A DNA stretch of 31,197 nucleotides, from NCBI GenBank assembly GCA_045837725.1, contig JBEWZL010000008.1, positions 186,001 through 217,197 on the forward strand, written 5' to 3'. Below are positions 4,817 through 31,197 of the stretch, piece after piece (the stretch's first letter is position 1; every line of letters starts with the position of its first letter). A model generated the notes under the pieces. It saw only the letters and a program-made list of their open reading frames with translations. It searched no databases and had not been told where the DNA came from. The translations under genes were made by a program, and so were the position numbers. This stretch comes from Vermamoeba vermiformis (taxonomy: Eukaryota).

Positions 4817-6684
4817 ATGGACAGCACGTCGCAAGAAGAAATTAATCAACGCAAATATATTTCATTGGCTTGCCAAAATTGCCGAGATAAACATCGTAGA
4901 TGCGATGGAAAAAATCCTTGCAACAGATGTATGGCTATAAAAGTAAAGTGCGTATACACTTCAACGAAGCCTCGAGGTGGATACCGCAGAAGAGACCCAG
5001 TGAAGAAGGCCACCCCAACCATACAAACAGCGATCCATCAAGCAACAGGTTCGAAATTTATTTTAAATTAAATAATTAATTAATTTTAATCATCTCCAGT
5101 AGCTGCTCCTACGATGCCGTTGCCTAACCAAGAGTTGAGTATCTACATTGATTATTATGCCAGCATCCACGCGAAAAATTCTGCTTCTTGGGACAACTAC
5201 CGTATTCCTTCCAGTCTATCAAATTTAAGTAAGTCAAATCATCGTTGGATCGTTATACAATCGACTAATATTATTTACGAAGATACCGAACAAAAGTTTC
5301 GGGTTAGCGCGACACTCGCAATGACAGCTTTGACACTTGGACATTTGACGCAAGGCCACATGCTTCTGGATCAAGCAAAGTAAGATCAGCACGAACATCG
5401 AACTAGTAGAGTCATCTAACGCATTAATAGGAGCTACCTTCCGCAAGTGATGTCGAACAGTTCAGTGGATGCACTTCACGGATTCGGTGCACTCGCGCAA
5501 TGTCATACTATGGAATTCGATTATGTAGCATCGTCTAATTACATCAAAGTCGCGAAGAATATTGCCAATTTATTATGGAAGCTACACCGGAACACCAACG
5601 CCAACAATGGGATGAACAGCAAGATTTATGTAACGCTCATGGAAGGATTTGTTGGCGGAAAATTATTTTATTTGAAACATTTGCCGGATAGAAGTCCTCG
5701 TACACTGTAAGTCGTAAAAATTCCTTATTGGAACGAAATTTCGCTAATTTTTTAAACCAGTAAAAAAGCGCGTCGATCGCTAGAAGACCTTGCAGACTTG
5801 ATGCTCGAAATTGCAGTAGATTCGTTAGAGGTGCTGAGTTTTATCAAAGTATGTCATTTTTAGTCTATAGAGTGCATTAGATACTTATCAGTATGAAGGG
5901 AATGTACGCGATTGGCCTCTGCTACGAAGTAGACAACATTTTTGATGCGATGAAGACAGTAGAAAATCTGGCTATGAAATATTCTCCCGCTCTTAAAGAG
6001 TACGTACTTATCAATATAATAGCTATTACTTTATTAACACAAAACTTTGACAGTCATTCAAACATCATCGTGAACTATGTCAATGTGTTAAGATACGCCC
6101 TATTGGATGACGTCACTGAGATGCGTGCTGCGTGTCAAACCTTAATTAAGATATACGATGAGATGTTGAATTACACTACACTAGCTTTGGCTTTATTAAG
6201 CTCGACGACACTCATGTGGTTCGCTTTGGGCCTAAACAGCGAACTTACTCAGGCATGTCAAAGGCGACTCATTTATTAATTTTATTCCTATTCACTAACC
6301 AAAAGCATCTACTAGTTACTTTCAATCGCGCATCGCATGTCAATGTTTTTCCCTGGCTGCAAAGTCATCTGCGAGAGGTTCACGCAAGGCAACCTTTCTG
6401 AGGTCGCCAAATGGAACCCTTTTACAGGAATTCGCGAGAAGTTCCAAGTTTCAATCTCACAACGGGACTCTCAAACTCATAGCCAACAAACTAATAGTAA
6501 CAGCGTTATACAAGCGGATTATAGTCACCTTGAACTATTGTCGTACAGCTCAAGTGACTCGCCGTCAGACCAATGTCAACAAATCAGTCAAGCGTATAGT
6601 GACCATAATAATGACGATATGATCAATCAAGAGTCGGATATGAATTACATTCAAGAAGACTTCATTTTTGATCCGTTGTATTAA
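4817..6684 (+). CDS. Zn(II)2Cys6 (GAL4-type) transcription factor, multi-exon
   Basis: 'ACQNCRDKHRRCDGKNPCNRCMAIKVKCVY' fits CxxC-x6-C-x5-CxxC-x6-C, followed by helical exons and an acidic, Q/S-rich C-terminus ending at 6684. Confidence 0.85.
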
Positions 6685-6894: not shown

Positions 6895-9706
6895 ATGGAA
6901 AAGGCAACTGGTTTACCCTCGATCTTTCTCGTCTTAGCAATTGTAACTGCCTCGTTTAACTTTGCAAGTGCAGGTAGTGATAAAAAAATATGAAAACATT
7001 ATTCGAATTTTAGTATATTAATCGCTCGATTAATACAGTGAGCTGCGCGGATGGAATGGTGATCGACATGTCTACCGCGACTATTAATCCAAATTACTGC
7101 GCATTTACATACAAAACAAGTAAGTACTTTTGACTATGAAGCTTCAATTACAGAAGAACTTGATTTATTTTTCCGTTAATTAATGTGACCGATCAGGCGT
7201 GGATGGCGCTCGTGGCATGGATTTGGCACCCAATGGAGACTTGTTAGTACTTGCTCGCAATAGTGCCTCAATTATGGCTTTATGGGAAGACGACGCGAAC
7301 GAAACGCAAAGCGCAACTTTATTTACCGGACTTGCCTTGAATCACGCGTTACGTTATCATGAAGGCTATATTTACGCTTCGAGCGATCAAAACGTTTACA
7401 GGATTAATAATTACTGAATTACAAAGAGATTCGCATCGAATCTTGCGTTGATTGCAAAATGTCAGAAAATCTGACGAATCTTCTTGCCTTTTATAGTAAA
7501 GAAGCGTTCCATTTACTTACTGTAATTATCTAACTTACATGACTTATAGATGGGCCTATAATGAATCAAATTACCGTTCGGCTTTGGGTCAATCGCAAGT
7601 CATTTTGCAAGGCATGCCAGCCAAGGGAAATCACGAGACCAGGACACTCGAGTTTGATTCCAACAACCGCGTCTATGTCAAGTACGTGTTAAGGGTCTCT
7701 AGAACTATCCATAATATATACTAACAGTACCATCATAGCATTGGTAGCGCCGATAACATTGACGCAGATAGCAGCCGCGCACGTGTCATTAGATTCACTC
7801 TTGACGGCAGTTATCCTAAGAACTACGGCACCGATACTCAAGTTTTTGGTAGGTCATATTATCTTATATATAAAATCAATTTGAATATTGACAAAGAATC
7901 TTATAGCGGACGGGACCAGAAACGAGGTCGGTTTGAGATTTGACAACCAAGGACGATTGTGGGGAGTTGAGGTACGATCGTGATCATAGTAAATCATATG
8001 AAACTAATATATTATATATAGAACGGTCTGGATAATCTCGGTGTTAGTGGAACTAGAACAGACTTTGGCGACATCCACAACACGAATCCGAGCGAAGAAG
8101 TCAACATGTTCTTGGAGGCCAATGCTGGCCAGTTCTACGGCTATCCTTATTGTTGGAGCGAAGGGCCTGGCACCAACGGCGCTGTTAGTTTTACTCAAGG
8201 ACTTGGCGCTGGTACTCAATGGGCAACTCAAACTAGTGACTCAACGTAAGCCAGCAGAATCATTACATATGATTAATATTAATTATTGGAATATAATATT
8301 AATTATTATTTTATTAAAGTCATACTGATGCGTGGTGCCGCAACACTACCAATAATAAGCCTCCTGTCTACAACTTGCCCGCGCACATCGCGCCTCTCGA
8401 TATTGTGTTCTATAATGGCGATAATATTCCCGATAAGAAGGGTAGAATGGCCATCATCACTTCGCATGGCAGTTGGAACAGGTACGGATCGGATCCACGA
8501 AATTCGAGGAAAGTTCTAATCTCGTTTTAGATTTCCCTCTAAGGGCCGCATGGTTGGATTTTTGAATTTGGACGAGAATGGCAATCCCGTGGACTTTGAA
8601 CAAATCTTTTGGGGCAACAATCCCGGCAGCTTTGGCATCCGCCCAGTGGCAGTAGTTGTTGGCCCGTGCAAAGCCTATGGCGAATGTATTTTCTTCTCGG
8701 ACGATTACGGCATGGCAGTACACGCCCTTGCCTATCTAGGGCCCGATAATCAAGTGCCGCGAGCCCCTACTAGCACTCCTGTGGCCCCGCCAGTTGCGCC
8801 CATTCAAATCGGTCAACCTGTCACTTTGTAAGTCTTTGCACCAATTTCATTACCAACTATAGACCTAATTAATCCGATATAGGAACCTCGGCCCAACTTC
8901 TCTCACTTACACCCTTAGGTAAGTTCTTTTAATATATACCAGTGTTTTTCTGACTCGTGCTTGACAGTGCCGATGAGACCGTGACATTTTCCATTCGTCA
9001 ACAAGCCAAGGGCTGGTTAGCTGTTGGGTTCAACTACGACGGTGCCATGATCACTTCTGAATGCGTGTTGGCATTTAATAACGGAACTGATGTCTTCGGC
9101 GTAAGTACAACGGATCTGCTAATATTTACGGCATGGTGCTGATTTTTTGCAGAAATTTTACCTCCGCAACACCACTGAACAATTGGCCACATGGAACGAT
9201 GACGATTTGATTTCGTGGGACCCGACTGATAATTCACTCGAAATTGACGGTGCAACTGTTGTTTACAACTTCACTCGTCCTTTGGCTAGTGGTATGTTTT
9301 TCGCATTTGTCAAACTCCGAGTGTCATACAAGCATTCCCAAAGCGAAGCTGTCAGTTTCCGTGAAAAAGTTTGACACGTGTCATTCTTTTTGGCTTGTTC
9401 AGGACTAAACTTTTATGTGCAGACCGATTCCCTATTTTGACCAACGGATCTTCGACGTACGTTTTGTTGGCTTGGAACGGCAATGCAGTGCCTTCTCTAG
9501 CTGCCAACGACTTGCCAAAGCACACTGGCCGTGGCGCGTATCCGATCAACTTCATGTACGGCATCATTGGCGATGGCCCTCAAAACCCACCTTTCACGCC
9601 GACTGATGGACCGAATAGCCAACCTACCAAGGTTTCTTCTACATCCTCGTACATGGTTTTGTCGTTGTGGGCTGTTGTTGGTATCATGTTGGCCTGGATC
9701 TTGTAA
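6895..9706 (+). CDS. Secreted glucose/sorbosone (PQQ-dependent, AA12-like) dehydrogenase fused to a C-terminal DOMON domain, probably membrane/GPI anchored
   Basis: Signal peptide MEKATGLPSIFLVLAIVTASFNFASA. Propeller motifs GNHETRTL, DGTRNEVGL, NPSEEVN, PAHIAPLD, TSHGSWNR and IRPV. Then a Pro-rich linker, DOMON 'GWLAVGFNYDGAMITSECVLAF...LLAWNG...PKH', and a hydrophobic C-terminus. Confidence 0.8.
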
Positions 9707-9756: not shown

Positions 9757-10696
9757 TTAGCAAAACGCGGCAACGAGGATCAGCGAAACAACGCTGATTG
9801 CAAGTTGATTGGAGCCAGAGGCTACTCGCAAAGGTCGTACTTTGATCGGTGTTGCCACTGGATTTGCTGCGGGTGTTTCAGAGGCATCGGGAGTCACGCT
9901 AGGAATCGACATGGGGGAATCTGCGGGAGATTCAACGGGAGATTCAACAGGAGCGGTGACAGGTGTTGAAACGGGACTTGACGCGGGAGAATCAATGGGA
10001 GATTGCACCGGAGATTCCGCGGGAGCTGCAACGGGTACGTAGCACTCGTCCACACATTTACCAGTGGCAGCACTGCACGTTGAGTTGTAACAGCCGTCAG
10101 GAACGACGCAAGTCACGCCTGTTCCCACGCAAACACCACTTTGACAGGTGTCAAGGTCAGTGCACGGGTCATCGTCGGAACAACTGAGGCCTTCTCCTTG
10201 CGCCGCGACACATCCGTCGATTGGATCGCATTCAAAGCATTGATCGCACTTGAGGTGAGAAACGGGCGTGCAAACACCTGATTGACAGGTATTGACACTG
10301 CAAACAGTTCCAAGGTCACAAGAGTCACCCTCGTTCTTGTCAATGCATGGCTCGGGCATCCACATCTCTCTTGTCCAACCGCTGTTGGTATCGAGAGTAG
10401 CGCCGCAGCGAAATCCGTACGACAATAATCCTGGCGATCCTGGGACGAACAAACAATTAGTAGTGGATTCGTTACGTTAACGTTTTTTAATAGGCTTACT
10501 GTCAGCACTCCAGCAGAGTTTCAATTCAGGATAGGAACCAGATCGGAAGTCGCAAGTGTCCTTTTGAATGTAATCGCCTTGTTTGGCAAATCCGATAGCT
10601 TGGGTGTCATGAAAGTACCAATCGACGCCATTGTCATTGGTAACAGCTTGAAAGTTGTACCCAGTGTCAGTGAGCACTGCAGTTCTTTGACCAGTA
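9757..10696 (-). pseudogene. 3' part of a Cys-rich cell-surface protein gene interrupted by the transposon
   Basis: Exon 10696-10500 (TGQRTAVLTDTG...WYF...IGFA...CW), intron 10499-10440, exon 10439-9757 with Cys repeats (CSDDDPCTDLDTCQSGVC), a P/S/E stalk and a hydrophobic tail. It joins the 5' part in frame once the element is removed. Confidence 0.85.
9905..10035 (-). repeat. Imperfect 12-bp coding repeat (P-x-x-S/T) forming a mucin-like stalk
   Basis: Translation PAESPVQSPIDSPASSPVSTPVTAPVESPVESPADSP; DNA units such as gggagattcaac repeat on the + strand. Confidence 0.8.
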
Positions 10697-10724
10697 CTGT
10701 AAACTGCCAAATAACTCATAAAAA
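10697..10724 (+). repeat. Left terminal inverted repeat
   Basis: CTGTAAACTGCCAAATAACTCATAAAAA, preceded by TA. Confidence 0.96.
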
Positions 10725-10758
10725 TTAATTGGTTTGTTTTCATAACTTTATTTAGCAA

Positions 10759-12808
10759 TTAATTGAGCATTCGCTCTACATTGATGGACACTAAGTGTTC
10801 TTCATTGCCGTTGAGGTTATTCGATATGCCACAAATTTTGAAACTTTTTTCTACTAACTCTTTTGGAATTCGACTCCATGCGGTAATCACCCAATTTGCC
10901 ACCAGCTGCTTTGTAGTCTTCATGAATGTTGCTTGGCTGGCTCGCCAGTTATCATGCAGTGTGCGAAATTGTTGTTTAAAAGCCTTGTTTATTGAGACAT
11001 CCAGCGGTTGAACTACGGGCGTGCATGAAGGAGGAATCAGCACACGCTTTGTAAAGCTGTCTTTTTTGGAAGATTCGCACTGAATATGGCCACTAAACTC
11101 GTCCCAAATAAGCAGGTTATGTGCCGAACCAACATGTTTGAGCCATATTTTGTCCAGCCATAACCTTGTTAGCTCAGTATTGTTCCATGCATTTTCTTGA
11201 AAGCAGATTTGAGCTACTTTTGTCGACAATACAACATCACTAATTGATCTTTTTGTTTTGCCCCGAAAGATGATCATTGGAGGCAACTTAGATCCATCAG
11301 CCATTACTGCCAAAACCACTGTAATTCGACGTCTGGTTGATCCTGAAGTCTTGACTACAACTGTTTTTGCTCCTCGACGGTGGATTACTTTGCGTGGAGG
11401 TACTTCAAAATATATAGGGACTTCATCCATATTCCCAATCAACTTTGATGGAATAGCAAATTGCTGACGTGCACACAGAACAGATGACCAGAAATCAATC
11501 AGTTTTGGGCGCAACTCTTCCATTGGATAAAGCTTGGAGGTAGCTACAGTTGGGGTCCTCAAGGACATATGCTGTCGTCTAAGGAAGCCTTGAAGCCATT
11601 TATCTGATGCGCAGAATCCGGCCTTAATTAATTGCGCTTTGTCTTTTACATCTTGACGAGTGACCGCCAGCTTGCGGTCTCGACGACCAGCAATCCACGA
11701 GGCCAATTCTATCTCTTGGTTTTCACTCATCACTGGTTTACGTCCTCCACCATGCTTGCGCAAACGGCCGAACGCAAAAGCGCGCTGTCGCCAACCATAA
11801 AGTGTTGGCTTTGGTATCAAATACTTTTGAGACGCATAATTGACCCCATATTGCTTCATTTCATTAAGAATAAACATTAATTTGCTAGGATTTTGCTTTA
11901 ATGTATTGTAAGAAACAATTCGACGTTTGATAACAACTGGTGTCGCCACAATGGGTCGCATCTGTCGTTGAGTCTTAGGAACGGTGTCTGAATTAAGACG
12001 AGCCTCAAGGTAATGAAATTTATCTATAGTTATAAAGGAATGAGATTGAATATGATTTCAAAGTGCAACGACAGCCAACGAGTGAGCCACCAGGCGACCA
12101 GTGACAGACCCGTTAACCAGCCGCTCCGCAGCAAAACCAGACTCTGAACCTCACTTACCTGAGAATGGAATGACAGGATAATCACATTGAATAGCAGGAG
12201 GATTGTTGGACTGGGGTTCTACATTGGTGGAGCTGCTGTGTTTGGATCTCTTTGGGCTCTGAGTTTGACTATCTAATTTTGTTAGTAATTGAGTGATTTT
12301 GATGCGATTTTTTTTGTTTATAGTCAATTAGACTGTGCGCATTCAGAATATGAAAACAGAATTCAATTAGCTGTTGATGTAAGCTAGAAACGCGTGCCGC
12401 AAGACCCGCGAAAAATTTGAGTCATTGCACTCTAACTTAGCTTAATGCAAACAGATTTTGGAGTATCTTATATGTAGAATATGGTTATTTAATATGCTGA
12501 ATACGAATTTGCTATTGAAAATTGATTCCGAGCTCATGCGATCCCAATCGAGAATTTTCGATTTGGATTTAATTTTTGTACCAAGTTGTACTGAGCTTAA
12601 TAACCTTAAATACACTATGAATAATATATATATTACCTTTATTTGCTAGTTTGGGTGCTTTTCTTGCAGGTCGATTTTGTTTCTTGGTGCTCAGATGTGT
12701 TTCAGCCTGTTCATCTGCAAAGCTCTTGGTATGGCGTCCCCTGGGTCTATCTCTTCTATTTAAGGATCCAGGCTTTAATTGCTTAAAAAACCTCTCTCTT
12801 GTGGTCAT
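10759..12808 (-). CDS. pogo-family transposase (HTH + CENP-B-type HTH + DDE_1), predicted 516 aa from 3 exons
   Basis: Exons 12808-12637, 12272-12159 and 12023-10759 join in frame through GT-AG introns (1551 nt). HTH 'YASQKYLIPKPTLYGW', CENP-B HTH 'EIELASWI...FCASDKWLQGFLRR', catalytic NMDE / IWDEFSGH / QPLDVSINKAF (DD33D). The core exon is certain; the upstream exons are predicted. Confidence 0.9.
12280..12581. repeat. Left arm of a 302-bp perfect internal inverted repeat, inside transposase intron 1
   Basis: Base-by-base reverse complement of 13135-13436, with no mismatches found. Confidence 0.97.
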
Positions 12809-12948
12809 TTAAATTGGTATTTGATTGATAAGAAATAATTTTGATAAAATTAATCAAGTTCGAACCAAATTTGGAAATTAAGTAATGCTCTGTATTTCTT
12901 ATTGTAAATCACCACGAATCATTACCAATAAACATACTGAATTATATT
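12809..12948. promoter_or_regulatory. Putative bidirectional promoter of the two transposon genes
   Basis: 140-bp AT-rich gap between divergent ATGs at 12808 (-) and 12949 (+); inferred from position only. Confidence 0.55.
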
Positions 12949-14892
12949 ATGTATCAAGACTTGGGTTTAACATGCCTAGAATCGGTACTGACTAAATGGG
13001 ATCATCCAGAACCACTGTCTCTTATCCTACTGGGCATCCAACGCTGGACCAGCAAAGACTCTTCCAATAGGCTGTACAGGTACTATTTATTATAAATTAG
13101 GCATAGTTATAATTTTGGAGCATAGTACAGCTCAGTACAAAAATTAAATCCAAATCGAAAATTCTCGATTGGGATCGCATGAGCTCGGAATCAATTTTCA
13201 ATAGCAAATTCGTATTCAGCATATTAAATAACCATATTCTACATATAAGATACTCCAAAATCTGTTTGCATTAAGCTAAGTTAGAGTGCAATGACTCAAA
13301 TTTTTCGCGGGTCTTGCGGCACGCGTTTCTAGCTTACATCAACAGCTAATTGAATTCTGTTTTCATATTCTGAATGCGCACAGTCTAATTGACTATAAAC
13401 AAAAAAAATCGCATCAAAATCACTCAATTACTAACAGAGATAAATTATCAGAATCTTGGTCACCGATGGTGAGATCCAGACCAATTTTGTGCACAACTCG
13501 ACCCTGGCACCATGGATTAGCTCACATATGTCATCAGGACACCTATTAAAGATCCCTGAATCCCACTGGAAGTTTGTTACGGTTGATAAGTACGTTGCCG
13601 ATTTATATTAACTTCACGCACTAACGTCCGTCAGTGTAAAAACTGTCTGCCTTTTGGCCACTGATGGTATTCAGTGTGACGACAAAAGTCCTCACGTAAG
13701 ACCTTTATATCACATTGGGCTCGATCCAAACAATGCGAAACTACCCCCAGTTCCTACGGATCGTGCCGCCAACAAAAGCGATCTTGTTGAAAACAATGAA
13801 GTCGAGCAGCAACAGCATGATATTGAACAACAAATTGAAGGTGGAGGCTCCGATATAGAGCAATCTAATGACGAGTCTATGGAGAGCAACTTTGTAAGTT
13901 TATCGATCGCTTACGCGCAACTTTTTTTAACAACACACGGTTAGTTTGGCGGCAACCTTTCATTACAGAAAGACAAGCTCTTTACATTCTACTATGATGA
14001 AAATCCAATCAAATACTCCCGTGGCTATCGTGGTTACTTAGGATTAGTCGTTCACAAAACAAACCTAAAACTTCGTGTTGGTTACGACTACCTGCTTATC
14101 ACAGAAGAGCGTGTCAGTTTAATTGCCATCTTAAAGTCAAACAATGGCAGACCTGCTTTACTGGTGATTGACAGTGATGACCAAGTACAAAGGATTGCTC
14201 CATCAGCTATTCAGCAAGAGATCGATGAATCTGCTGCTCGAAAGAAGAAACTTGGCGTCGATGATAACATTAACCAATTCCTGGAGCGAAAGACTGTCGA
14301 GAAGCGTGCCGATGCTCCTGCCAAACAGAACTCCAAGAAACAGCACAACATGCCCCGCCCAAAGCCAACTCTTCGTTCAAGCATCGAGCTCGATCCAAAG
14401 CCTGAACCTCAAGTTAAGCAGTCAGAATTTACTCATCCAGTGGTGTCTGAAGTTGAAGTGCTAAAGAATCAAGTGAAAGAATTGAAAGACACAATTCAGA
14501 CTTTGCAAAAAACAATATCGACTCAGTCGACTCCCATTCATGGATCGATGGCACCAAGTCCAATGTGGGTAATGCCGTACCCTAGCAGTTTTCAAACTTC
14601 TCCAAAGGAATCCAAACATAAACGAACCAAGCGCCACAAACATTTGGCCACATCTGGGTCTCGTTCGAAAGAAAGAGAGTCGCGCAACTATTCTAGCGAC
14701 AGTAATGACGATCCTTCACTTTCATCATCCTCATCAAGATCAGATTCAAGATCTCCAAAAAGACGACACAGAGATCGGCACTCAAAACGGCGTCGGTCAC
14801 GATCTCCAGATAGACGACAACGCAAGCATAGATCACCTACGAGGCATCAATATCATGGTGATTATCAATATAAAAAACCAAGGTATTACTAA
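12949..14892 (+). CDS. Transposon cargo gene (ORF2), predicted 491 aa: RPA70N-like OB fold, acidic linker, small beta domain, coiled coil, RS-rich tail
   Basis: Exons 12949-13079, 13452-13589, 13635-13893 and 13945-14892 join in frame (1476 nt) with GT-AG ends; introns 1 and 2 have CTAAC branch sites. AATAAA follows the stop. Domain calls are by eye. Confidence 0.8.
13135..13436. repeat. Right arm of the 302-bp perfect internal inverted repeat, inside ORF2 intron 1
   Basis: Reverse complement of 12280-12581. Confidence 0.97.
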
Positions 14893-14919
14893 AACAATAA
14901 AGTTTAGGATTGGCTCAAT

Positions 14920-14947
14920 TTTTTATGAGTTATTTGGCAGTTTACAG
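14920..14947 (-). repeat. Right terminal inverted repeat
   Basis: TTTTTATGAGTTATTTGGCAGTTTACAG, followed by TA. Confidence 0.96.
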
Positions 14948-15203
14948 TAGCCGCCACTGTCATTTTTTCAGCTCCATCTGGGCGGCATCCGTACAGCAAG
15001 TAGTCGCCAGGACAAACAGCGTACATATTTGTAATATTTTGGGAAGTGTCTAGGTAGCTCGTCGTCCAACATCGTCGCCAACCGACGAGATCAGCGAAAG
15101 CGACATCTACTTGAGGACCGAATGGGTAGTACGTTGGCTGTGATGTCAATCCAGCAACATAACTTGCGGCGATAAATAATATTGTGACTTGTAGTGCTCT
15201 CAT
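14948..15203 (-). pseudogene. 5' part of the interrupted cell-surface protein gene
   Basis: Signal peptide MRALQVTILFIAASYVAG then PTYYPFGPQVDV...GWRRCW...CPGDYLLYGCR...MTVAA. The frame runs into the TIR and stops at 14904. Confidence 0.85.
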
Positions 15204-15591
15204 TGTTGAAGTTAGTGTTACTGGCTTGCTGGTAAATGAAAATTTATATGTTTCCATCGTGGAACAATCTACCGAATTACAACATTTGCCGCACGGATTA
15301 AATTCGATTTCATAAAATTTCTATAATTGCGGGACCGTTATTTTACAATATCGGTGAATAATTTACCAAATCGCAAGAACGATACCCGACATCACGATGA
15401 CTATTTGGTTTATACATTTCCTTATTTAGTAAGAATATTTGGGAATTATCCTAGTAAATGGAATGACAAGGTTTATTGCCATAACGATCGATGTCTACTT
15501 CAGATCGATGGTTGGAACGTGATCGAGTGGATCTGAATCTGCGATCTGAGGCACGAAAGGGTTTAATGGTGTCAAACGTATGACGCGTATA

Positions 15592-16803
15592 TTATTTTGA
15601 TATTGATTTGAAGGCTAACAACAGCACGCCAAGCGAGACAAGTTGATTCGAGAACGCACTCTGTTTGACTTGACAATTGTTCCACAGATCTTCCATTGTA
15701 TTTTTTTGTGCCGTTGATAACGCTGTCGACACAAATCCTTCAAAATTTAATACTCCACCAGCGAGAACAAGTTGTGCTGGGTTGAAGATTGACAGTACTG
15801 TCGCAATGGCCAAACCAAAAGTCTCCGCTGCGTCGCCTATAATCTGAATAATAGCCTCCTCGGTCGCTGTCAATTTGACTTTTTCTCGCATTTTGGCAAT
15901 GTCCCACTCGTTTTCGTGATTGCGTTTGGCTACCTCTTTCAACATCTGGGAAACTTCTTCAATATCAAGTCCAGTCTTTTCTTTCAGTTTTCTAACTATG
16001 CCCCGGCCTCCTAATGCTTCATCAAAAGTCGAAATTTCGCCATTTTTTAATCGAACTGGAGCACAGCCTAGACAACCTGCCCACCCGATGGATCCGCGCA
16101 TCACTATCGGAACTCAGTCAAAATCTATTATTGTATTATACTTATAAAATAAGCCACATATGATAATTAATGACGAAGTTAAAGTCAATTCTGAGAAGGT
16201 GAATGTTGTTTTTTTCAACTGTGAAACTTTGTACGTACGTTGACCGTTGACGATGCAGCCAAGTCCCAATCCAGTTCCAGCGACTAGGACAGCTAAATTA
16301 TCAATCTTATTGCCGGCTTGAGTTTCCATGTATTCTGCGGCTATCGTTCCTGCACGTACATCATTCTCTATAACGACCAAAACATCTGATCCGAACAGAT
16401 CTTTCATCGCTTCTTTCGGTTTCACACCTAATAAAATTTATTTAATCTCGTAGGTCATTATTAACTGAAGATTATCATAGAGATTATAGGTTGCGGATGT
16501 ACCTGTTAACGCAGAAATTTCGCACACCGTGATTGCTTCAGTCTGAGAGTCTACAAATCCGCATACAGACACACCTACTGCGCTTATCTTTCGCGAGGGA
16601 GGGTGAACAGACTGCAGAAATTTCGTTATTTGTTGTTTCAATTTGTCAACAGAAAATTCTTGACCAGTTGGACTTCGATCGAATTGAACGCTGTTGAAAT
16701 TAAGTGCGTTATTTTCTCCTCTAGGCCTTGATATGTAGCTTAGCATCAGTTTTGTGCCTCCAATGTCGACACCAAGAAATTCGTCGCATCCGGTTTTATC
16801 CAT
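15592..16803 (-). CDS. ROK-family sugar kinase-like protein, 3 exons
   Basis: Motifs GVDIGGTK, VVIENDVRAG, GTGLGLGCIVNG and NPAQLVLAGGV, with two GT-AG introns. Confidence 0.88.
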
Positions 16804-17192
16804 TCTGAAGTTAATCGCAATTAATTACGATATTATTTTTAAATTGACAGTAAAATTATCTAAGTTTAAACAACGAGCCAATGCAATTACTTGATTTCCT
16901 GAGGATTTTACATTTTTTCGTTTCGCTGAGTCAGCTCCTGGTGCAACTCACATTAGTTTTATGACCCAATTTGATAAGGAAATTATGCTACATGTGGTCT
17001 TCTATTGATATATGGAGCAGCAGACAATAAAACTAAAAAAAATTTTGTCGTGTTGCGCTGGGACTGCGAAAAAGAACCAACCACTGTCGGCTAACAAGTA
17101 CCAGCCCACACGTGTTATTATTAATGCAGTTGTTTGTATGATCGTAATAGAATTTTATTTAACATTATCGTGACGACGCGTTTCCCGTATGG

Positions 17193-20100
17193 TTAATTAG
17201 CAAGGTCATCTAAAGACAGATCCAGTCAGAAGGAGAAACATTATACAACGTATTTATATAACAATGTTACCTGAATAGAATCGCCAATACGTAAATTCGT
17301 GCGACAACCAGCCTTGTCCAGTACCAGCAGAGAGACCAACGTAATAACGTACCGGATCGAAGTTCATGTACGTCGAAACAACGAGATTACCATTAACAAA
17401 GACCTAATAATAGACATATTAATTAGTATAAAAAGCTTTTTGTAGGAATGCTGGTCTTACATTCAGTTGGGTATCATAAATAAAACGGAACTCGTAGACA
17501 CCATTACAAGCGACTTTAGGCAACGGGTTAGGAAAGTTTTGACCGAACCAACGCAAGTAGTCGGTAGTAGGTGTGGTCCTATAATAATAAAACAATAAGT
17601 AAATGTGTTGGTGTACGTTATGACATGTTTGGATCCGCACCAATTGGCCACCCAGAACTCATTTTCCGTAATACTATAAGCGAACAAAGTAACATCGGGC
17701 ACATTTTGAATGCCAAGCTGACCGCCAGTAGATGACAGCACATCATTTTCATTCGGTTGATGCTTCGAGAAGAACAATGTGAAGCTGATGACACGTGTCA
17801 GTTTGGCACGTCAAACAAAGAACGAAAAAAATATTTACCCGTCAGCGCCATTGTAGACCGGATCGCAGTTGACTGGCACGAAGAAAAACGACGAGTTGAA
17901 GCCCACGTCAGGACGAACCGAGTGCGGGTAGAAGGCAACACCAGCTTGGTTTGCGTCGTTAGTCAGACTAAGTTTGCCGTCCAGCAAGTGCGCGGCGCCG
18001 AGCGTGACGACGTCAGTGTCATTGCCAAAATCAAAGTCAAATTGGTCGAGCGACACAGAGTTGTAACTGTAGACCCAACTGTTGATTGATTGGCCACCAT
18101 TCGAGTAGCCATCGGCGCCCGAGAAACCGACGTAGTATCTTCTAGGCTCCAATTCCACTCTCACAGTTTTCATTAAATTGTCGTCCGAGAAGATCTAAGT
18201 AATAAAAAGGACTTAGAAAAGAGAGGTCAGATTTGACAAGATGCGGATGTGGTACCTGTAAGAACTTTCCGTCGTAAACAAAATTGAATATATAACTGTT
18301 GCCGCAAGAGAAAGGGGCAGTGCCGAACCAAGGAACGGACAGGCACTGAGGATTGTCTCTGAATGTCACATTGGCCGGTGTGTCCCTATTGACACGTGTC
18401 ATAAGTACTTATTGTACCTCCAAAAAAGGTAACGGCTACGTACCAGCTGCACACGTAGAAATAATTCAAGTTGAAAGTGATCACTAGTCCGATGTCAGGA
18501 ACGTTGCCAATGCCTAGCCCCGTACGAGCGGACGATACAACACCATCGACAGAAGGCACATTCTTCGACAAAAAGAACGTGAAACTAAAGGGATAATTAA
18601 TATTAAGTAGATAGGCGTAATAGTGCTACTTACCCTCTAGGTCGTTGGAAAGCCGATTTTGTTTCACAAACGGTGTGATTGAACTTGCTCTGGAATCCCA
18701 AATGAGCGAGCACTCTGTTCGGATGCACGGCAGCACCGACCGTGAAATTGGTTTCAGTCGTGAGTCTCAATCGAGAGTCGACAGTGGCATCGGCATAGAG
18801 CAACAAATTGCTTTGGTCGAAGCTAGAGTACGACACACGCTCGACATTTTCAGGTTGCCCGGCCTGGAACGAGATCGATTTGATGAAGTTGGCAAAACCA
18901 CCGTTGCCAATGGCCGACAAGCCAAAGTAGTACGAGTCCCAGTCCATCGTAAAATTCTTTCGCAGAAGAGTTCTGCCGTCCGTGAATACCTAAGTAAAAA
19001 TACGATCAGAACTAGTTAAATTAAATTTGACACGTGTCAAAGTAAAAACAAACCTCTAACATAATTCCGTCGTATTTAATAACGATCTCGTTAATATCGT
19101 TGTTAGCGAAACGGTAAGATCTCGGATCCGCATCACAGTTGGTCGAAAAATTGGAGAAACTAGTTTCCCTGATAATTACAAGACATTAGCCTCGTTTAAT
19201 ACTCATCAAATTAATCCTTACCAATGACATAATTGGACTGAAGTTGATTCTGCGTAGTATTTTGACGAGGATAGTATGATTCTCATCGGTAATATTACAG
19301 CGTAAGTGCTGGGCAAGGTTGAAATGCCGTAACTTTCCCACGAGGCACGTACTTGTTGTTCGCTCGGGAATGACTTTGATAGGAAGAACGCGAGGCTAAA
19401 AGAGACGTCAGATCCGCCTTTGTGAAAAAAATTTTTCTTACCCACTGTGAGTAGTTTTCTCGGCAAATAGAGCTCTGGAGTAATTGAATTTGATTTCGAA
19501 TCCGGTGTAGGCTTTGTATAGAACGGGGCGGGCCCAGACACCAGTAGAATTGACCATTGTGCTCGTTAACACAACTCCATTCGTACTGCTAAGACCGGTA
19601 TTACCAAAAGACTGGAAATTCTGGTTATTAATAATCGATGTGATGGCGGGGAAATCAATTCCATTGTAATTGAGCAAATTGAACGACCAATCAGTGACGC
19701 TTTGACGGAAGTAATTGTTGCCGTTGGCGGCGCTAAGTCCCACGTAATACAACGCCGGCTCTAATGTCTCAGTTATATCGTAGAAAATCAAGTCTCGATC
19801 AAAGTACAGCTATTAAAAAACATTAGAATGCAATCTTATTAAAGAAACGTTGACGTACCTTGATTTCAGATCCGTCAAAGATAATTTCAACCACGTAGCT
19901 GCTGTCGCACTTGATTGGTTTATTCCGACTTTTCGTCATGTTGCAGTCTTGCCAATCAACAGTTGTAAGATTCCTTTTTGAAAAAAGATTAATTCACTTT
20001 TGCAGATCGCATCTGAGTACCATGACCGACTTACCAATTGCACTTGCGGAACTCGTTGTAGAAGGGACTGAAACCGACTGCAAGCGTGTTCATATGATTA

Positions 20101-21895: not shown

Positions 21896-22214
21896 TTATT
21901 TGAATAACTCTAATCGCCTTCGTTGACTCTTTTATTCCTAAAAATTACTAAACAAAGCATGACGTAACCGTGGATTGCGCCTGAAAAAAGGTTAGAATCA
22001 AATCCGTAATAATAAACGAAAAAATAATAATATTTTCTTTTGATTACTTGCCTGGAATAATGCCAAGTATCCATAATACAATATTAATCGCCAATGTTTT
22101 GCTACAACCGAAGAACAGTCCCACGGTAACCGGGCTCAGAAATAGAGTGAAGATGAGGTAAAAAGCATTCCATCCACAATCGCTGCACTTTCTTTCTTGA
22201 GCTGTTTTCGTCAT
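21896..22214 (-). CDS. Pmp3/YqaE (UPF0057)-like proteolipid, copy A
   Basis: ...FLSPVTVGLFFGCSKTLAINIVLWILGIIPG|AIHGYVML..., with a GC-AG intron at 22051-21981. Confidence 0.8.
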
Positions 22215-22733
22215 TATTGAGCTATGTTAATCAACGGCAAGTTAAAATCATCGCTTTTTAGGAGCTGTCACCGGCAGACACGCACGGGACTAACAAGGGA
22301 CTACAAACGCAATCTCGTATTAAATTGCATGTTAGACGTCGTAATTTGTTTCTGTAAGTTATAATTTAAGAAATAATTGTGATGGCCCTTTGTGGTGTGT
22401 TGGCAAAGCGATGCTGAATAATTAGCATTTTCTTTGTAATTGCCAACCAAAGACAACCGCGCAATATACTTTGTACAAGCGAGTGTTTCGAGCATATGAT
22501 ATCAATTCGTGCTTTATTAATTTCGAAGCGTTGTTTGGTGGATTAACTACTGTTGGGTAAGTTTATTTCAAAAGAACGAGTTTAATAATTACAAGATACT
22601 CAGGAAAATTCCCTATTAAAATTTATATAATAACTACATTTTAGTTACAAAGTATTCGTGGTTTGCAAATTGTGGATTGCCGCCTAAAATTATTTTATTA
22701 TTTTAATATTAGGCATTGATGAATAATTACCAA

Positions 22734-22997
22734 TTAATAATCGTCCTCCATCTTCTTAAAATGTAAGCAAATCACCACATAGCCATGAATTGCGCCTAAA
22801 ATTATAATTATTTTTCGATCATCCGATCAAAACAAAGGAAATTACGCTAGCTTACCCGGAATTACGCCTAATAGCCACAGTACAATATTAATCGCTAACG
22901 TGTTGCTGCAACGGAACATGACGCCAACTGTCACAGGGCTCAGAAACAAGGTAAACACCATAAGAAATGTTATATATAAGCAATCTACGTTAGCCAT
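22734..22997 (-). CDS. Pmp3/YqaE-like proteolipid, copy B
   Basis: MANVDCLY...FLSPVTVGVMFRCSNTLAINIVLWLLGVIPG|AIHGYVVICLHFKKMEDDY, same intron position as copy A. Confidence 0.82.
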
Positions 22998-23274
22998 ATT
23001 ATATTCGTATTGGTACTCGATAACGTTGGGTCTGCAATAACAATAAGATTCAATTTTGATGTCGTACGGATCGCGTTACACGCCTGTCAGAAAAAATCGA
23101 GATTGCCGTTAGCGTTAGTCCCCTTTCGTAATTTCCCACTAGCTATGGTACCTAATAATCGTTATTATTATTTATTTTTAAAATACAATATTTGTTTTTA
23201 TCGTGTCTTCCGATCTCAGATCGATGTTTGAATCAATCGCGTTTCGGTTTATATTTACATTAATATTAATACAT

Positions 23275-23539
23275 TTAATCATTGTCCTTCTTAAACAGTA
23301 GAATAAGCATCACAGCACCGTGGATCGCGCCTGAACATAAAATTTGAATTAAATTCTCTATGGCGAGCTGGAGATGTATTTAAGCAGTTATAATTACCTG
23401 GTATTACACCTAATACCCACAGGACGATATTAATGGCCAACGTCTTACTGCAACCGTAATGGATGCCGATGGGTAACGGGCTCAGGATTAAACAGGAGAA
23501 CCCAAGGAAGATCATATACGCCAAGTGAGTGCAATTCAT
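23275..23539 (-). CDS. Pmp3/YqaE-like proteolipid, copy C
   Basis: MNCTH...ILSPLPIGIHYGCSKTLAINIVLWVLGVIPG|AIHGAVMLILLFKKDND, same intron position. Confidence 0.82.
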
Positions 23540-25384: not shown

Positions 25385-28300
25385 ATGGGCAACGGGTCAC
25401 AAGTATTATTGCTGACCTTGAAGAACTTGAAGATCAAGGGCAGAAACAGATGCGGCACTGCAATGGAGGCCATCTTTCCCCTGATCTGTCTAATCTTTTT
25501 AATGACTATATTTATTGTTAGTACATCAGGCGCAGACGATGATCCGATCTTTGGTCCAATCCCGATCTCTCGCGCAGATCCTACAAAAGCGATCGCGTAC
25601 GGACCAAACATCGACTTGGTTCGTAATATTATGCTACCAGTCGTTGATGGACAAGAAGATCTTTTATATCCTATTGATACGAATGAAGAAATGACTCGCA
25701 CATTGATCACAAGCTCGGGAGCATTGAACTTGGCTGCTGGTAAGTTAAAAGTCTTTTTCTACGGTCTCAAAGTTATTCACATTAATTATAATTACACATT
25801 ATAGGTGTATTTTTCCGGTTAAATCCGGAGGAGATAGCTACTGGTGCATTATCTGATGACATTACGTACGCCATTCGCTTCCTTGGTCAAAACATTACGG
25901 ATCCGACGAAGCTAATTGATTACACGGCCAACGCAAACAAATCTCCCAACTTAATATACATCTCATTCGTCGCACTGCAACAAAAGATCGATCAAAGCAT
26001 CATGGCACTCAAAATTTCAGAGAAAACAGGAGTGAGTTCCAGCGTCAGCATGTCAGCATCAGCAACGCGCTTTCCAGTCCAAGAAGGTGAACCAAACTTT
26101 GACTCGAGATGGCAACAACGCAACTTGATTCTCAAACCTCTTGGTGGTACTTGGCTGACATTCGGTATTCTGTTCTCTGTGTACCGATTGGTCAACACTG
26201 TGTTGGTCGAAAAGAAAACAAAAGTGCGTGACTCGATGAGAATGATGGGTATGCGAGTAAGTTGCACATAATTTTTTCCCTGAGCTCATTCTAACGCTTG
26301 TATTTAGAACGAATTCTATTGGTTGACTTGGTTCGTGGTATCATTGGTCATCATTTTGCCAGCGTTAGTCGCGTGCTCCGTAGTTCTCAAGCTCTTCAAA
26401 TTCTTCCCACTGACTCCTATTGGCATTCCGTTCATTAGTTGGTTCCTTTACGCTGCTACATTGATCGCATTTGCGATGATCTTGTCATCGTTCTTAAACT
26501 CCGCGAAGGTACGTAATACATCCGTAAAACTCAACGTACTAATCCTTATTAATTTAGAGCTCCGGTATTCTCGCTATGTTGACTCTCATCATCTTCAGCA
26601 TCGCAGGCGAACTCGTGGCCATGGCACCTGTCATTCCAGGTGTCAAGATCTTGTTGTCGCTGTTCAGTCCCTTCGCGTTCAACAACATAATCAATATCCT
26701 CGCTGAAGCTGAGAATCTCAGAATCACCATGGATTACGAGCACTCGACAGGTACGATCAAACCGCGTTTCGTCCGTTCTAATCATCTCCGTAGTATCTAT
26801 TACCGAATGGCTTCCTTCGTTGCACTCAATGATCTCAATGCTTGTTTGCAACTTGGTACTTTATCTGTTGATCGCTTGGTACATCGATAACGTCAAGACA
26901 AGTGGCTCAAAGAACCGTGGATGTTTTTGCTTCCGCAAATCTTATTGGGGCAAGCAAACGAACTTTTCAACCAATAACGAAGAAAGACTTGACGAGTACG
27001 TCCCGACTGAAGGAGATTTCGAGAAAGTTGACGAACTGGGCAATCCAGTTGTGAAAGTCAAAAGACTTTGCAAGACGTTTGACATCAACGGAAAGCCGTT
27101 TGTTGCCGTCGACGGCTTCAAGTTGGACTTGTACGAGAATCAAATTGTTTCCTTATTAGGTAATACTCAATACCAAGTAACGAGAGTCCTGTACTAAGAA
27201 TTTGAAGGTCACAACGGAGCAGGCAAAACAACATTGATCTCAATGCTGACTGGCAGTTTGGCACCGACATCAGGCGACGCAGAGTTCTACGGCAACAGTC
27301 TCACAAAAGATTTGAGTGCGTTGAAGAAGATTGTTGGTATTTGTCCTCAATACGATGCAATCTGGCCTCAACTTACAGTTTACGAACACTTGCAACTCTT
27401 TGCTGGCTTCAAAGGTACGATCGAATCATCGATTTCCAAATAAGGAAATAGTCTCGTATTAACACGAATGGCTTAATAGGAGTGAAATTCGGAGATATCA
27501 AAGCAGAGGCAAATCAACTGATCAAAGACTTTGAGCTCGAAGACAAACGCAACTATCCTGCTGGCAAGCTGTCTGGTGGTCAAAAGAGAAAATTATCGAT
27601 TGCTATCGCACTGATCGGAGGGTCTAAAGTTGTATTCCTTGACGAATCATCGAGTGGCATGGATCCTGAAGCACGAAGAACTGTTTGGGATAATTTGACT
27701 CGTTACAAAGCTGGTCGTGTCATCATTTTGACGAGTAAGCCGAAATCATTTGCATCACAAGACCAGTGACTAATCGCACAACTCTTCAGCACATTTCATG
27801 GATGAAGCAGACTATCTTGGTGATCGTATTGCCATCATGAGACATGGAAAGCTTCTTTGTGCAGGCTCATCGTTGTTCTTGAAGAACAGATTCGGTCTCG
27901 GATACACTCTCGGTTGTGTAAGTCCATCGGTTTAAATTTCGAAAGTGATGTTTACTCACGGTATTGTTGGTTCAGGTCAAGGCACCCAAATGTCAAGTCG
28001 AATCAGTTTCTGAGTTCTTGAATGAGCTCTCACCCAACATTCAAATGCTTTCAAATGCAGGCGCTGAGGTCATCTTCAGAGTTCCACGTGAAAGTTTTGA
28101 ACGATTGCCGCAGATTTTAACAGCGATCGAATCCAACAAAGATGAATTGGGCATCACATCATACGGTGTTGGCCAATCAACACTTGAAGAAGTATTTTTG
28201 GAGCTCAACAACGACTCGACTCAAGATCAAGGTATCGATGTCAATCTGAAAGACACAGTGTTCATTCCAGGCGCAAAGCACCCTTCAAAGAGACGTCAGC

Positions 28301-31074
28301 TCAACGCACTTCTCAAAAAACGGCTGTTGTTCGCTCAACGTGACAGCAAGTTCTTGTTCATTCAGTTCGCAGTGCCCATCATTTTGTGTCTCGTTGCATT
28401 CATCGTTCAAACTTTTGTGTTTTCTCCGAACAATCCCAACGCCAAGATTGCCTTCAACGGAACAACCTACGGTAATATCCACCTTATTCCTTTTATGGTC
28501 GCAGAACTAACTTTGTGACCGATTTTAGACACGTATCTTTCACCTTGGTTTGACGCTGGTTGTGCGACAAACTTGTTCTCTGCATTGCCGTTCTACACTT
28601 CAGAAAGATTCCCAGAGATTTCACAGTCAGATCTATTGTCACTGCTTGCCAACATCAACACATTTGCAGCAGGTGCAGTGACCAATTCTCAGTGCTCATC
28701 AGCTGCAAATGCATACACTCTCGAGTACTCCTTGCTGTACAACGCATCGATACCTCACTCATTGCCTTATCATCAAAACTTGGTCTCAAATGCACTGCTC
28801 AACACAGAATTGGGAAACTCAAGCAGAGTGTCAATCACCACAATCAATCAACCTGCTGGTACGTTCGACGAATGAATTCACCCTACTCACATGAACTAAT
28901 TGTCTTATTAGGCGCTGGCATCGTCCTCGTAAACAATCTGATCAACATTATCATCTATTTGCTGATTCTTCTCGGTTCAAGTGTGTTGACAGCATCAGCA
29001 GCAGCGTACATCTTCCAAGAACGAGAACTTGGTGTCAAACAACTTCAACTTGCAAGTGGTACAAACGCGAAGATCTATTGGTTGTCGAACTTCATTTGGG
29101 ACTTTGTGTTGCACATGATCATCTTCATCGTCATAATGTTCTTAGCGAGCGCCGTCAGCTGGTCAACCTTTGGTGGTGTGCGACTTGGCGCCGAGCTCAT
29201 TTTGATCATTTTCTACAGCTTGGCATCAGTTTCTATTGCTTATTTCTTCTCCTTCGTCTTCTCTAGTCCTGGAGCTGGTATCGGATCGCTTGTTGGCCTC
29301 TTCGTTGGTGCAGGATTTGGAGCCTTGGCAGCAATCAACGCAATCGGGGCCACTGCCACGGACGGGACAACGGCGGTCTTGGCGTTGGGTTACATTTTCA
29401 AAGTTATCAGGTACGCTGATCGATCCCCAGTCTCACGCTGAACAGCTACTAACGACCTCTTTTACAGCCCTCATTATTTACTCCTCTCGTCTCTGGGACA
29501 GCTGTCAAATGGCTTCGGAAGTGATCCGTTGAACCCTGTTGATGCAAACACGAACATCTTTGGAATGTAAGTTGGTTTGACATTTTGACACCTCGCTGAC
29601 GCGTTCTAGTAACTTCTGGGGTGCATCGTACATCATATTTGTTGGCCAATCCTTAATCTACGGTGGCTTCACATTGTTGTTTGAAGAATACACACAACTC
29701 AGATTGAGGAGAAACACAAGTGCGAACAACACACTTCGCGATGCTGACGAAGACGATGACGTGGCCAAAGAGCGCGACATTGTTGACAGTGCTAATGCCA
29801 CTGACAGAGAGAGCAACTTGGTGTGGGTCAGAGGTCTTCGCAAAGAATTCAATGCGAAGAAAAAGATCCACAAAGTTGCAGTACACAACTTCTCACTTCA
29901 CATTCCTCGTGGTGAAAGCTTTGGTCTCTTGGGTGCAAACGGTGCTGGTATGGTTATTAACGACTACAAGTACAATAGTGACACGTGTCTAACGATCAAT
30001 GATTCGTAGGCAAGACAACAACACTGAAAATGTTGTCAGGACAACTTCTTCCATCACGTGGTGAAGTGAGTATCAACGGCAACACGTACCAACAACTCGA
30101 TGGCATTCTTCAATCAATTGGCTTCTGTCCTCAATTCGATTCGGTCATTCCAAAACTGAGTGGTCGTGCTCACTTGGAGTTGTTTGCAGAACTCAGAGGT
30201 ACGATCGAGATAAATATCACATGTTACTTTTATTAATAACTCGTGACTGCACAGGTCTTCCAGAAGACAAAGTGCCCTCAATCGTTGATGCACTGATCAA
30301 AATGATCAACTTGACAAAGTACGCAGACAGACCTTGTGGCAAGTACAGTGGTGGCAACAAACGCAAACTGTCCTTGGCACTTGCTTTAATCGGTGAGTAG
30401 TACTGAGTGATATTATGCACGAGGCAATAACTAACGTTCATATTATTTGAAGGCAATCCACCAGTTCTGTACTTGGACGAGCCCTCGACAGGCATGGATC
30501 CACTTGCACGAAGATTCATGTGGAACTTGATCATGGCAGTGCGCTCGAACAAAGCTGTCATCTTGACAACACACAGCATGGAAGAGTGTGAAGCATTGTG
30601 CACTCGTGTTGGTATCATGATCAGTGTAAGCTACATCAATCTCGCAAAAATAGTTTATTTCCTTATTTGGAAATGTTATTGATTGATCGCAGTCACAATG
30701 CTTTTGATCGTTATTGACACGCGTTTTATCTACAGGGAAAACTCCAATGCGTCGGCAGTCCTCAACATTTGAAAACCAAATTTGGCAATGGTTATCGTTT
30801 GGAGCTCAAAACTGACATGCAACACATTGACGACATTCCAAAGTTCATTTCACAACTTGCCAAAGATGCCAAACTGATCGACAATCACACGACAATGTTC
30901 AGTTACGAAATACCGATGCACAACTTGACACTTGGCTCGCTGTTGGAACGTGTTGAAAGTGTGAAAAACAAACTTGCCATCAGCGACTATTCAGTGAGTC
31001 AAACGAGTTTGGAACAGATTTTCATCACCATGGCCCAAGAATGTGCACAGCCAAACATCGTTATCGAAAGTTAA
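25385..31074 (+). CDS. ABC transporter, subfamily A, full length (TMD-NBD-TMD-NBD)
   Basis: N-terminal [13 protein letters not shown]1: [34 protein letters not shown]2: [41 protein letters not shown]-terminal SQTSLEQIF. Confidence 0.96.
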
Positions 31075-31197
31075 TTCAACTTTCGCATCATATTAAATTA
31101 TTTATTAAAGACATTATCGTTGATAATAGACATTTCGAGGTTTGATTGGCCAAATCACGTTTAAATCGCTTGCTTAGGCGATTGAATTTTGAAAATA

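Follow-up and report, generated by a model that had tools for sequence, protein, structure and literature searches.

A perfect inverted repeat of 302 nucleotides (nt) sits at the centre of a 4.25-kb DNA transposon in the genome of Vermamoeba vermiformis (contig JBEWZL010000008.1). It was studied within a stretch of 31,197 bases of that contig, referred to here as the window, whose first base is position 1 of all coordinates. The transposon carries two divergent genes, one modelled as coding for a DDE transposase and the other designated ORF2 (open reading frame 2), and each arm of the repeat lies in the first intron of one of them. We hold with about even confidence that one intron is present here in two mirror-image copies, of which the repeat is the homogenised core, and that any inversion of the segment between the arms is a rare by-product and not a dedicated switch. 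The structure is unusual and probably passive. An earlier note, made from the letters of this DNA, had read it as a phase-variation-like switch of a promoter and two first exons.

The inverted repeat and its sequencing support

By direct comparison, the longest perfect run pairs 12280-12581 with 13436-13135 (302/302 positions complementary) around a 553-nt spacer at 12582-13134, exactly the coordinates that the earlier note had given. The repeat finder called the same pair of arms with a length of 352 nt and 94% identity (12261-12612 and 13104-13455). Among the 19 inverted pairs of the window the 302-nt pair is by far the longest; the next is formed by the 30-nt ends of the transposon, and the remaining pairs do not exceed 29 nt, with 72-100% identity. 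A perfect match of 302 nt cannot be due to chance. The placement of the repeat in both first introns, with the splice donors and the ATG exons between the arms, agrees with independent splice models. As had also been claimed, arm identity stops just past the branch site and before the acceptors: each arm ends in ...ACTAACA, shortly ahead of the acceptors at 12273 (minus strand) and 13451 (plus strand). The parts of the repeat are as follows.

12280..12581, unstranded: left arm of the perfect 302-nt inverted repeat (direct comparison)
13135..13436, unstranded: right arm of the perfect 302-nt inverted repeat (direct comparison)
12582..13134, unstranded: central 553-nt segment with both donors, both ATG exons and a 140-nt spacer (comparison and splice models)

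All four edges of the arms are spanned by contigs of the DNA runs X1 and X2, and depth roughly doubles in the arm contig, to 1105.5 from 594-630 around it in X1 and to 223.4 from 106-117 in X2. Both runs come from one sample, possibly the source of the assembly itself, so that their support is not independent; the contigs nevertheless exclude a gross artefact of the repeat. A 22-nt word of the arm gave no match in genome_contigs or viral_contigs. Logan contigs break at the edges of the arms, and no junction word is changed when a segment between perfect arms is inverted. Since these words stay the same, the orientation of 12582-13134 is not fixed by short-word contigs, and short reads cannot be trusted for the orientation of this middle piece. 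An assembly artefact would be compatible with this, be it a foldback chimera or a middle piece placed arbitrarily, and X1 and X2 may be the assembly's own data. It is contradicted by the contigs that cross the four arm edges, by the doubled arm depth in two runs and by the fact that both reading frames close in the assembled orientation only, and we regard it as extremely improbable.

Two mirror-image introns

The genes being divergent, the same 302 nt lie in sense orientation in both first introns. In the mirror register, the two sides match at 302/302 positions in the core, at 31/55 between the core and each GT donor, a distance of exactly 55 nt on both sides, and at 11/20 from the core toward the acceptors. 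None of 5000 shuffles reached 31/55, and 389 other registers averaged 15.7 and did not exceed 24. In the exons mirror identity falls to about 0.3, which is background; when exon 1 was compared with exon 1, 1973 of 2000 shuffles scored as well. On this comparison the unit of homology is the whole first intron.

12273..12636, minus strand: transposase intron 1, 364 nt, containing the left arm; GTAATATA...ACTAACAAAATTAG (model, mirror homology)
13080..13451, plus strand: ORF2 intron 1, 372 nt, containing the right arm (model, mirror homology)

The other three modelled introns measure 135, 45 and 51 nt, and the first introns are long only because of the arms. The fold of the whole intron was no better than that of shuffled sequences (z -1.31). 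The perfect core joins intron ends of about 55% identity, and a duplication of the age implied by such ends would not have spared 302 nt from change. The step in identity would for this reason be best accounted for by gene conversion between the arms, or by some equivalent re-copying, on at least one later occasion. The earlier note had supposed that arm identity is kept by inversion or by gene conversion. Recombination as the agent gains indirect support from the drop of 302/302 to 31/55 and 11/20, with the exons at background.

The history that we favour would run as follows. A young pogo/Tc5-type element carries a divergent pair of genes, a three-exon DDE transposase gene and the four-exon ORF2, with a short AT-rich spacer between them. 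One intron would have been duplicated into both genes, its same-sense copies forming an inverted repeat on the DNA. This duplication would predate what the perfect identity implies, the intron ends having diverged to about 55% identity, and one or more arm-to-arm gene conversions would later have restored full identity to the 302-nt core. The same recombination could be resolved as a crossover, which would invert the 553-nt cassette of promoter and first exons. Such inversion, a likely by-product, would be rare and unprogrammed and would mostly disable the element.

Several points weigh against this history. Gene conversion would be deduced from one sequence, the element being apparently present as a single copy, and one recent re-copying would resemble ongoing homogenisation. 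Youth alone is also expected to give a perfect identity of 302 nt, if the diverged flanks are ignored. All splice junctions are model-based and the splicing of the central exons is itself predicted; the RNA runs X8 and X10, which bear the same species label, constitute no test, as X8 placed no read and X10 only 4 partial reads on the 5-kb stretch and the flanking host exons were empty too. Lastly, a weak U4-like match in the arms and a frame-keeping second acceptor of the transposase, both described below, hint at a possible function of the arms or of the flip.

Two other origins of the repeat were weighed. Introner-like elements and near-identical introns are described in the excerpted texts of PMC3609843 and PMC9860276, and two independent insertions of one such mobile intron, one per gene, would explain why detectable mirror homology is confined to two introns that are both far longer than the other three modelled ones. 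As in introner-like elements, two introns of different genes share sequence and exceed the others in length; unlike in those elements, there are only two copies, both in one element, and diverged ends surround a perfect core, which two recent insertions would not leave. Moreover, the arms reach only twofold depth in the two runs, with no further identical copies in the genome and no other copy in the window, and inspection by eye found neither target duplications nor terminal repeats at the ends of the arms or introns. We consider such an origin very unlikely. The nested insertion of a miniature inverted-repeat transposable element (MITE) or foldback element was rejected, the arm ends having no target duplication or terminal repeats by eye. 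Comparison of the transposon end with 12200-13500 gave weak local similarity only (score 11), which also argues against a nested MITE.

The perfect complementarity of the arms would allow a self-silencing hairpin, in which a read-through transcript of both arms forms a 302-bp double-stranded RNA stem and RNA interference, if the host has it, limits the element. Read-through is plausible since the element lies within a minus-strand host ORF, and the read-through of Tc1 ends in Caenorhabditis elegans is an analogous case. The hairpin nevertheless leaves the coincidence of the repeat with two introns unexplained. X8 and X10 gave no usable reads on it, and we consider it distinctly unlikely.

Consequences of an inversion

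Under the favoured history of a duplicated and re-homogenised intron, a flip of the central segment would be accidental. The switch proposed in the earlier note would require more, i.e. a functional invertible cassette of promoter and first exons in which homologous recombination flips 12582-13134 between an ON and an altered or OFF state. The parts that such a flip would exchange or join are listed here.

12159..12272, minus strand: transposase exon 2, 114 nt, no ATG; alternative acceptor 12268 (model)
12637..12808, minus strand: transposase exon 1, 172 nt, ATG at 12808, basic peptide of 57 amino acids (aa), phase 1 (model)
12809..12948, unstranded: 140-nt spacer between the two ATGs, 23% G+C (composition)
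12949..13079, plus strand: ORF2 exon 1, 131 nt, phase 2 (model)
13452..13589, plus strand: ORF2 exon 2, with an internal in-frame ATG (model)

The phases that had been assigned to the first exons are those of the splice models, 172 nt giving phase 1 in the transposase and 131 nt phase 2 in ORF2. The flipped state was rebuilt in silico. The frameshift foreseen for ORF2 was reproduced, with a stop in exon 2: transposase exon 1 runs into stops when joined to acceptor 13438, 13440 or 13452, and exon 2 of ORF2 retains its in-frame ATG. The OFF state foreseen for the transposase stood in part. ORF2 exon 1 joined to acceptor 12272 gives an arginine followed by a stop, as claimed, whereas acceptor 12268, four bases on, restores the frame through the transposase and yields a 501-aa chimera, so that there is no clean OFF. 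The lack of a dedicated recombinase was borne out: in the transposase Pfam recognised DDE_1 and HTH_Tnp_Tc5 alone, in ORF2 it recognised no family above cut-off, and a scan of 10 further ORFs brought up no recombinase.

A functional cassette would be in keeping with the step in identity, which implies past recombination of the arms, and with arms that are longer than homologous recombination usually needs. Both donors stand at the same distance from their arm, and both orientations keep complete GT...ACTAAC...AG introns because the donors lie on the inner side and the branch sites and acceptors on the outer side of the arms. The tandem acceptors 12272 and 12268 would, in addition, admit either exon 1 into the transposase frame. 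Nevertheless, the element has no site-specific recombinase and apparently exists as a single copy, so that no population of copies would benefit. ORF2 has no compensating acceptor, all three candidates ending in stops, and if the spacer promoter is bidirectional a flip would alter the N-terminal peptides only. A frame-restoring AG within a few bases is, by estimate and not by computation, not improbable by chance. On balance we judge a functional cassette unlikely. A toggle driven by host recombination between the twin introns, giving a heritable and reversible activity state with no dedicated recombinase, appears very improbable to us. One orientation would then provide the full transposase with its basic N-terminus together with ORF2, and the other an N-terminally swapped transposase and no ORF2.

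A weak U4-like match in the arms

In a permissive Rfam scan, both arms gave a match to the U4 small nuclear RNA (snRNA) family RF00015, antisense to the introns.

12439..12593, plus strand: U4-snRNA-like match, sub-threshold, left arm, inward (RF00015, 18.9 bits, gathering 46, model 1-138/138)
13118..13277, minus strand: U4-snRNA-like match, sub-threshold, right arm, inward (RF00015, 22.4 bits, gathering 46, model 1-138/138)

At the gathering threshold Rfam returned no match, as both scores fall below 46. E-values were 0.31 and 2.6 over the whole window, and 0.0041 for the 22.4-bit match over a 411-nt stretch. Each arm could accordingly be read as a small-RNA gene cassette, in which about 159 nt of upstream sequence precede a U4-like RNA of the Sm class of about 155 nt, the two copies being kept identical by concerted evolution or by selection on the RNA. 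The RF00015 model is matched at full length in both arms, and the cmscan alignment comprises 5' AGCUU..GCA, UUUGCUA-UUGAAAA, a strong central hairpin, AAUUUUUG and a terminal hairpin. The Sm-like site AAUUUUUG thus lies between the strong central and the short terminal hairpin, the arrangement of an Sm site flanked by hairpins. Shuffled sequences fold less well than the 3' domain (z -3.36 and -2.52), and a G+C-rich block followed by an A/T run was seen by eye about 30-50 nt upstream of the match. In the RNA run X10 the few reads that touch the stretch share 22 nt at 12499-12520, with UUUGCUAUUGAAA as core, and then diverge.

Several observations speak against a small-RNA cassette. By a rough estimate, a match of 22 nt is about what chance would produce in some 1.9 Gb of reads, and none of the RNA reads matched the arms along its whole length. 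Control loci totalling 67.7 kb yielded 11 further sub-threshold matches of 18-31 bits, none of them to U4. The K-turn 5' stem-loop was left unaligned by cmscan (45 nt against 29), no canonical K-turn was seen by eye and the local fold of this region was no better than shuffles (z 0.10); the same holds for the candidate as a whole (z -1.47). Perfect identity stops 12 nt short of the modelled 3' end and consequently the two 3' hairpins differ. Rfam scans found no U6 in the window. In sum the arms resemble U4 snRNA in the full-length sub-threshold match, the Sm-like site, the central hairpin and the UUGCUA-UUGAAAA box, and differ from it in bit scores far under the gathering value and in the unmatched 5' stem-loop. 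We hold a small-RNA cassette to be doubtful.

Separately, three reads of X10 with distinct starts form a palindrome centred on the 22-nt word (12499-12520 and 13196-13217), and run on into sequence related to the arm without being identical to it. Snap-back cDNA of a related small RNA could account for the palindrome, as could a palindromic relative of the arm or coincidence.

The transposon and its insertion site

The element that carries the repeat is a complete DNA transposon of the pogo/Tc5 type, with the tested features of that type, and is apparently autonomous. Its borders and its surroundings are given below.

10695..14949, unstranded: whole DNA transposon including the flanking TAs, element proper 10697-14947 (ends, TA, in-silico removal, depth)
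10695..10724, unstranded: left terminal inverted repeat, TA plus 28 nt (30-nt pair, 100%)
14920..14949, unstranded: right terminal inverted repeat, 28 nt plus TA (30-nt pair, 100%)
10477..10694, minus strand: interrupted host ORF, 3' half (ORF list, in-silico removal)
14950..15223, minus strand: interrupted host ORF, 5' half, start approximate, signal-peptide-like MRALQ... (ORF list, in-silico removal)

The 30-nt perfect ends start and finish in TA, so that a TA stands at both junctions of the element. In-silico removal of the element with one TA turns the host ORF into one uninterrupted frame of about 160 aa, which points to a recent insertion. The restored ORF has a signal-peptide-like beginning, MRALQVTILFIAAS..., and matched no Pfam family above cut-off. 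In X1 the depth of the element (594-630) equals that of its flanks (551-622) and no empty-site joint was listed. There appears to be one copy of the element in the genome; other genomic copies for comparison would therefore be absent.

Other features of the locus were recorded beside the element. A gene for a ROK-family kinase-like protein (15592-16824, minus strand) and a large ABCA-type ABC transporter gene (about 25800-31100, plus strand) are its neighbours, both split over several frames, as expected with introns. A palindromic motif, (TT)TGACACGTGTCA, occurs at five places (9364-9391, 17790-17809, 18389-18410, 19019-19040 and 29970-29993), several of them apparently intergenic, and may be a host promoter element. 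A 105-nt unit is present at 22047-23497 in three diverged direct copies (100/74/66%) with spacings of 804 and 542 nt. Of the words sampled from 9800-15800, 18% were found in the lake-water metagenome run X4 and 5-6% in soil and root metagenome runs.

The transposase gene

The transposase model has three exons and 516 aa (12808-12637, 12272-12159 and 12023-10759). Its remaining parts, beyond those already listed, are these.

10759..12023, minus strand: transposase exon 3 with the stop; HTH_Tnp_Tc5 and DDE_1 domains (Pfam, homologues)
12024..12158, minus strand: transposase intron 2, 135 nt, GTAAGT...TATAG (model)

The open frame at 10759-12057 of the minus strand counts 432 codons. Pfam assigned it DDE_1 (PF03184; 2.1e-21, 76.7 bits, cut-off 22) and HTH_Tnp_Tc5 (PF03221; 3.9e-08, 33.6 bits, cut-off 22.2). 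Homologues number 59, with a top identity of 70%, and D211, D319 and D353, invariant across 7 aligned transposases, would form the catalytic acidic triad. In the three closest full-length relatives (P0001-P0003), conservation begins at DKF, immediately after the exon-3 acceptor, and no methionine is found downstream of the DKF start. This suggests that upstream coding exons are a feature of this transposase family. One of the three, P0001, has a methionine two residues ahead of DKF and may start there, which weakens the suggestion. In the window itself an upstream ATG exon is required, because no methionine precedes DKF in its frame and exon 2 contains none.

A metagenome scan for relatives returned 80 loci, most of them shorter than 3 kb, of which none exceeded 40% identity over most of the protein. 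Their self-comparison revealed no long perfect internal repeat, the longest being 158 nt at 75%; these loci are too distant to bear on the family of this element. The metagenome contig L030, which carries a distant pogo relative, contains at 6265-6398 a strong hairpin; on both of its strands, several families of plant miRNA precursors gave sub-threshold matches (28-31 bits).

ORF2 and the central spacer

Divergent from the transposase gene, the ORF2 model comprises four exons and 491 aa, and apparently encodes a member of a very rare protein family. Its last two exons, with flanking introns of 45 and 51 nt around the first of them, complete the list.

13635..13893, plus strand: ORF2 exon 3, acidic (model)
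13945..14892, plus strand: ORF2 exon 4 with the stop; beta-rich N-terminal part, coiled coil, Arg/Ser-rich tail (model, relatives)

Among 1.84 billion representative proteins, exon 4 has 3 relatives (E 8.8e-38, 2.2e-30 and 3.3e-05), which align from its first residues through the Arg/Ser-rich tail. The conserved part of this tail reads KRRRSRSPDRR, and the tail may be of the type found in splicing factors. No Pfam family matched ORF2 above cut-off, TSC22 giving a sub-threshold match only, and the protein atlas gave no usable match. The AlphaFold model, with a mean predicted local distance difference test score (pLDDT) of 46.7, is too poor for use; a predicted coiled coil at residues 164-194 is the sole part with a pLDDT near 80.

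The 140-nt spacer between the two genes would, from its position and composition, act as a bidirectional promoter. The arms themselves were considered as inward-facing promoters of both mRNAs, which is disfavoured as the leaders would hold 9 and 12 upstream ATGs. A single record of X1 lies only partly on the stretch, with loose ends at 12849 and 12908; beyond each end come 255 nt of unrelated, A/T-rich sequence, which may belong to another locus that has a short piece in common with the central spacer.

Comparison with known systems

The element shares with the pogo, Tc5 and Tigger transposons of the IS630-Tc1-mariner group a DDE_1 domain with three invariant aspartates, a helix-turn-helix of the Tc5/CENP-B type, short terminal inverted repeats and the TA duplication. 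It differs from them by its divergent multi-exon ORF2 and by the 302-nt internal inverted repeat derived from first introns. Extra ORFs are mentioned in general terms, and specifically for the ciliate Tec/TBE elements only, in the excerpted text of PMC7325037. In the excerpts of open-access papers and bioRxiv preprints, no such layout is described for this superfamily, nor is inversion or self-regulation through splicing parts.

Invertible segments with a dedicated recombinase are found in the phages Mu (G) and P1 (C), in Salmonella (Hin) and in Escherichia coli (fimS), and the yeast 2-micron plasmid combines FLP with repeats of 599 bp. As in the recombinase-driven segments, inverted repeats here bracket a segment with predicted gene starts and a putative promoter, and divergent genes flank it. 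Contrary to these systems, the element has no recombinase gene and its arms are a long generic homology, not short recombinase sites; the resemblance to them and to the 2-micron plasmid would be geometric only.

Other parallels may be sought where host machinery suffices for recombination. The palindromes of Y chromosomes and the repeats of plastids have arms kept identical by gene conversion, and the present repeat is like them in its identical arms and in the sharp drop to diverged flanks. It is unlike them in measuring 302 nt and not kilobases, in lying inside a single mobile element and in having as arms the introns of two genes. Inversions that arise between inverted repeats by non-allelic homologous recombination are a further parallel, with human polymorphic inversions and Galileo in Drosophila as cases, in the excerpted texts of PMC3961182 and PMC2775673, respectively.

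Significance

The alternatives that give the repeat a function would each carry a distinct meaning. If the arms flip measurably, this would be a transposon that regulates itself by DNA inversion. If they encode a U4-like RNA beside an Arg/Ser-rich protein, it would be a transposon that regulates itself through splicing parts of its own. Should the passive reading of a duplicated and homogenised intron be true, the locus would illustrate neatly and on a small scale how gene conversion keeps an inverted repeat identical within a mobile element, and would also present a pogo-type element with a conserved second gene.

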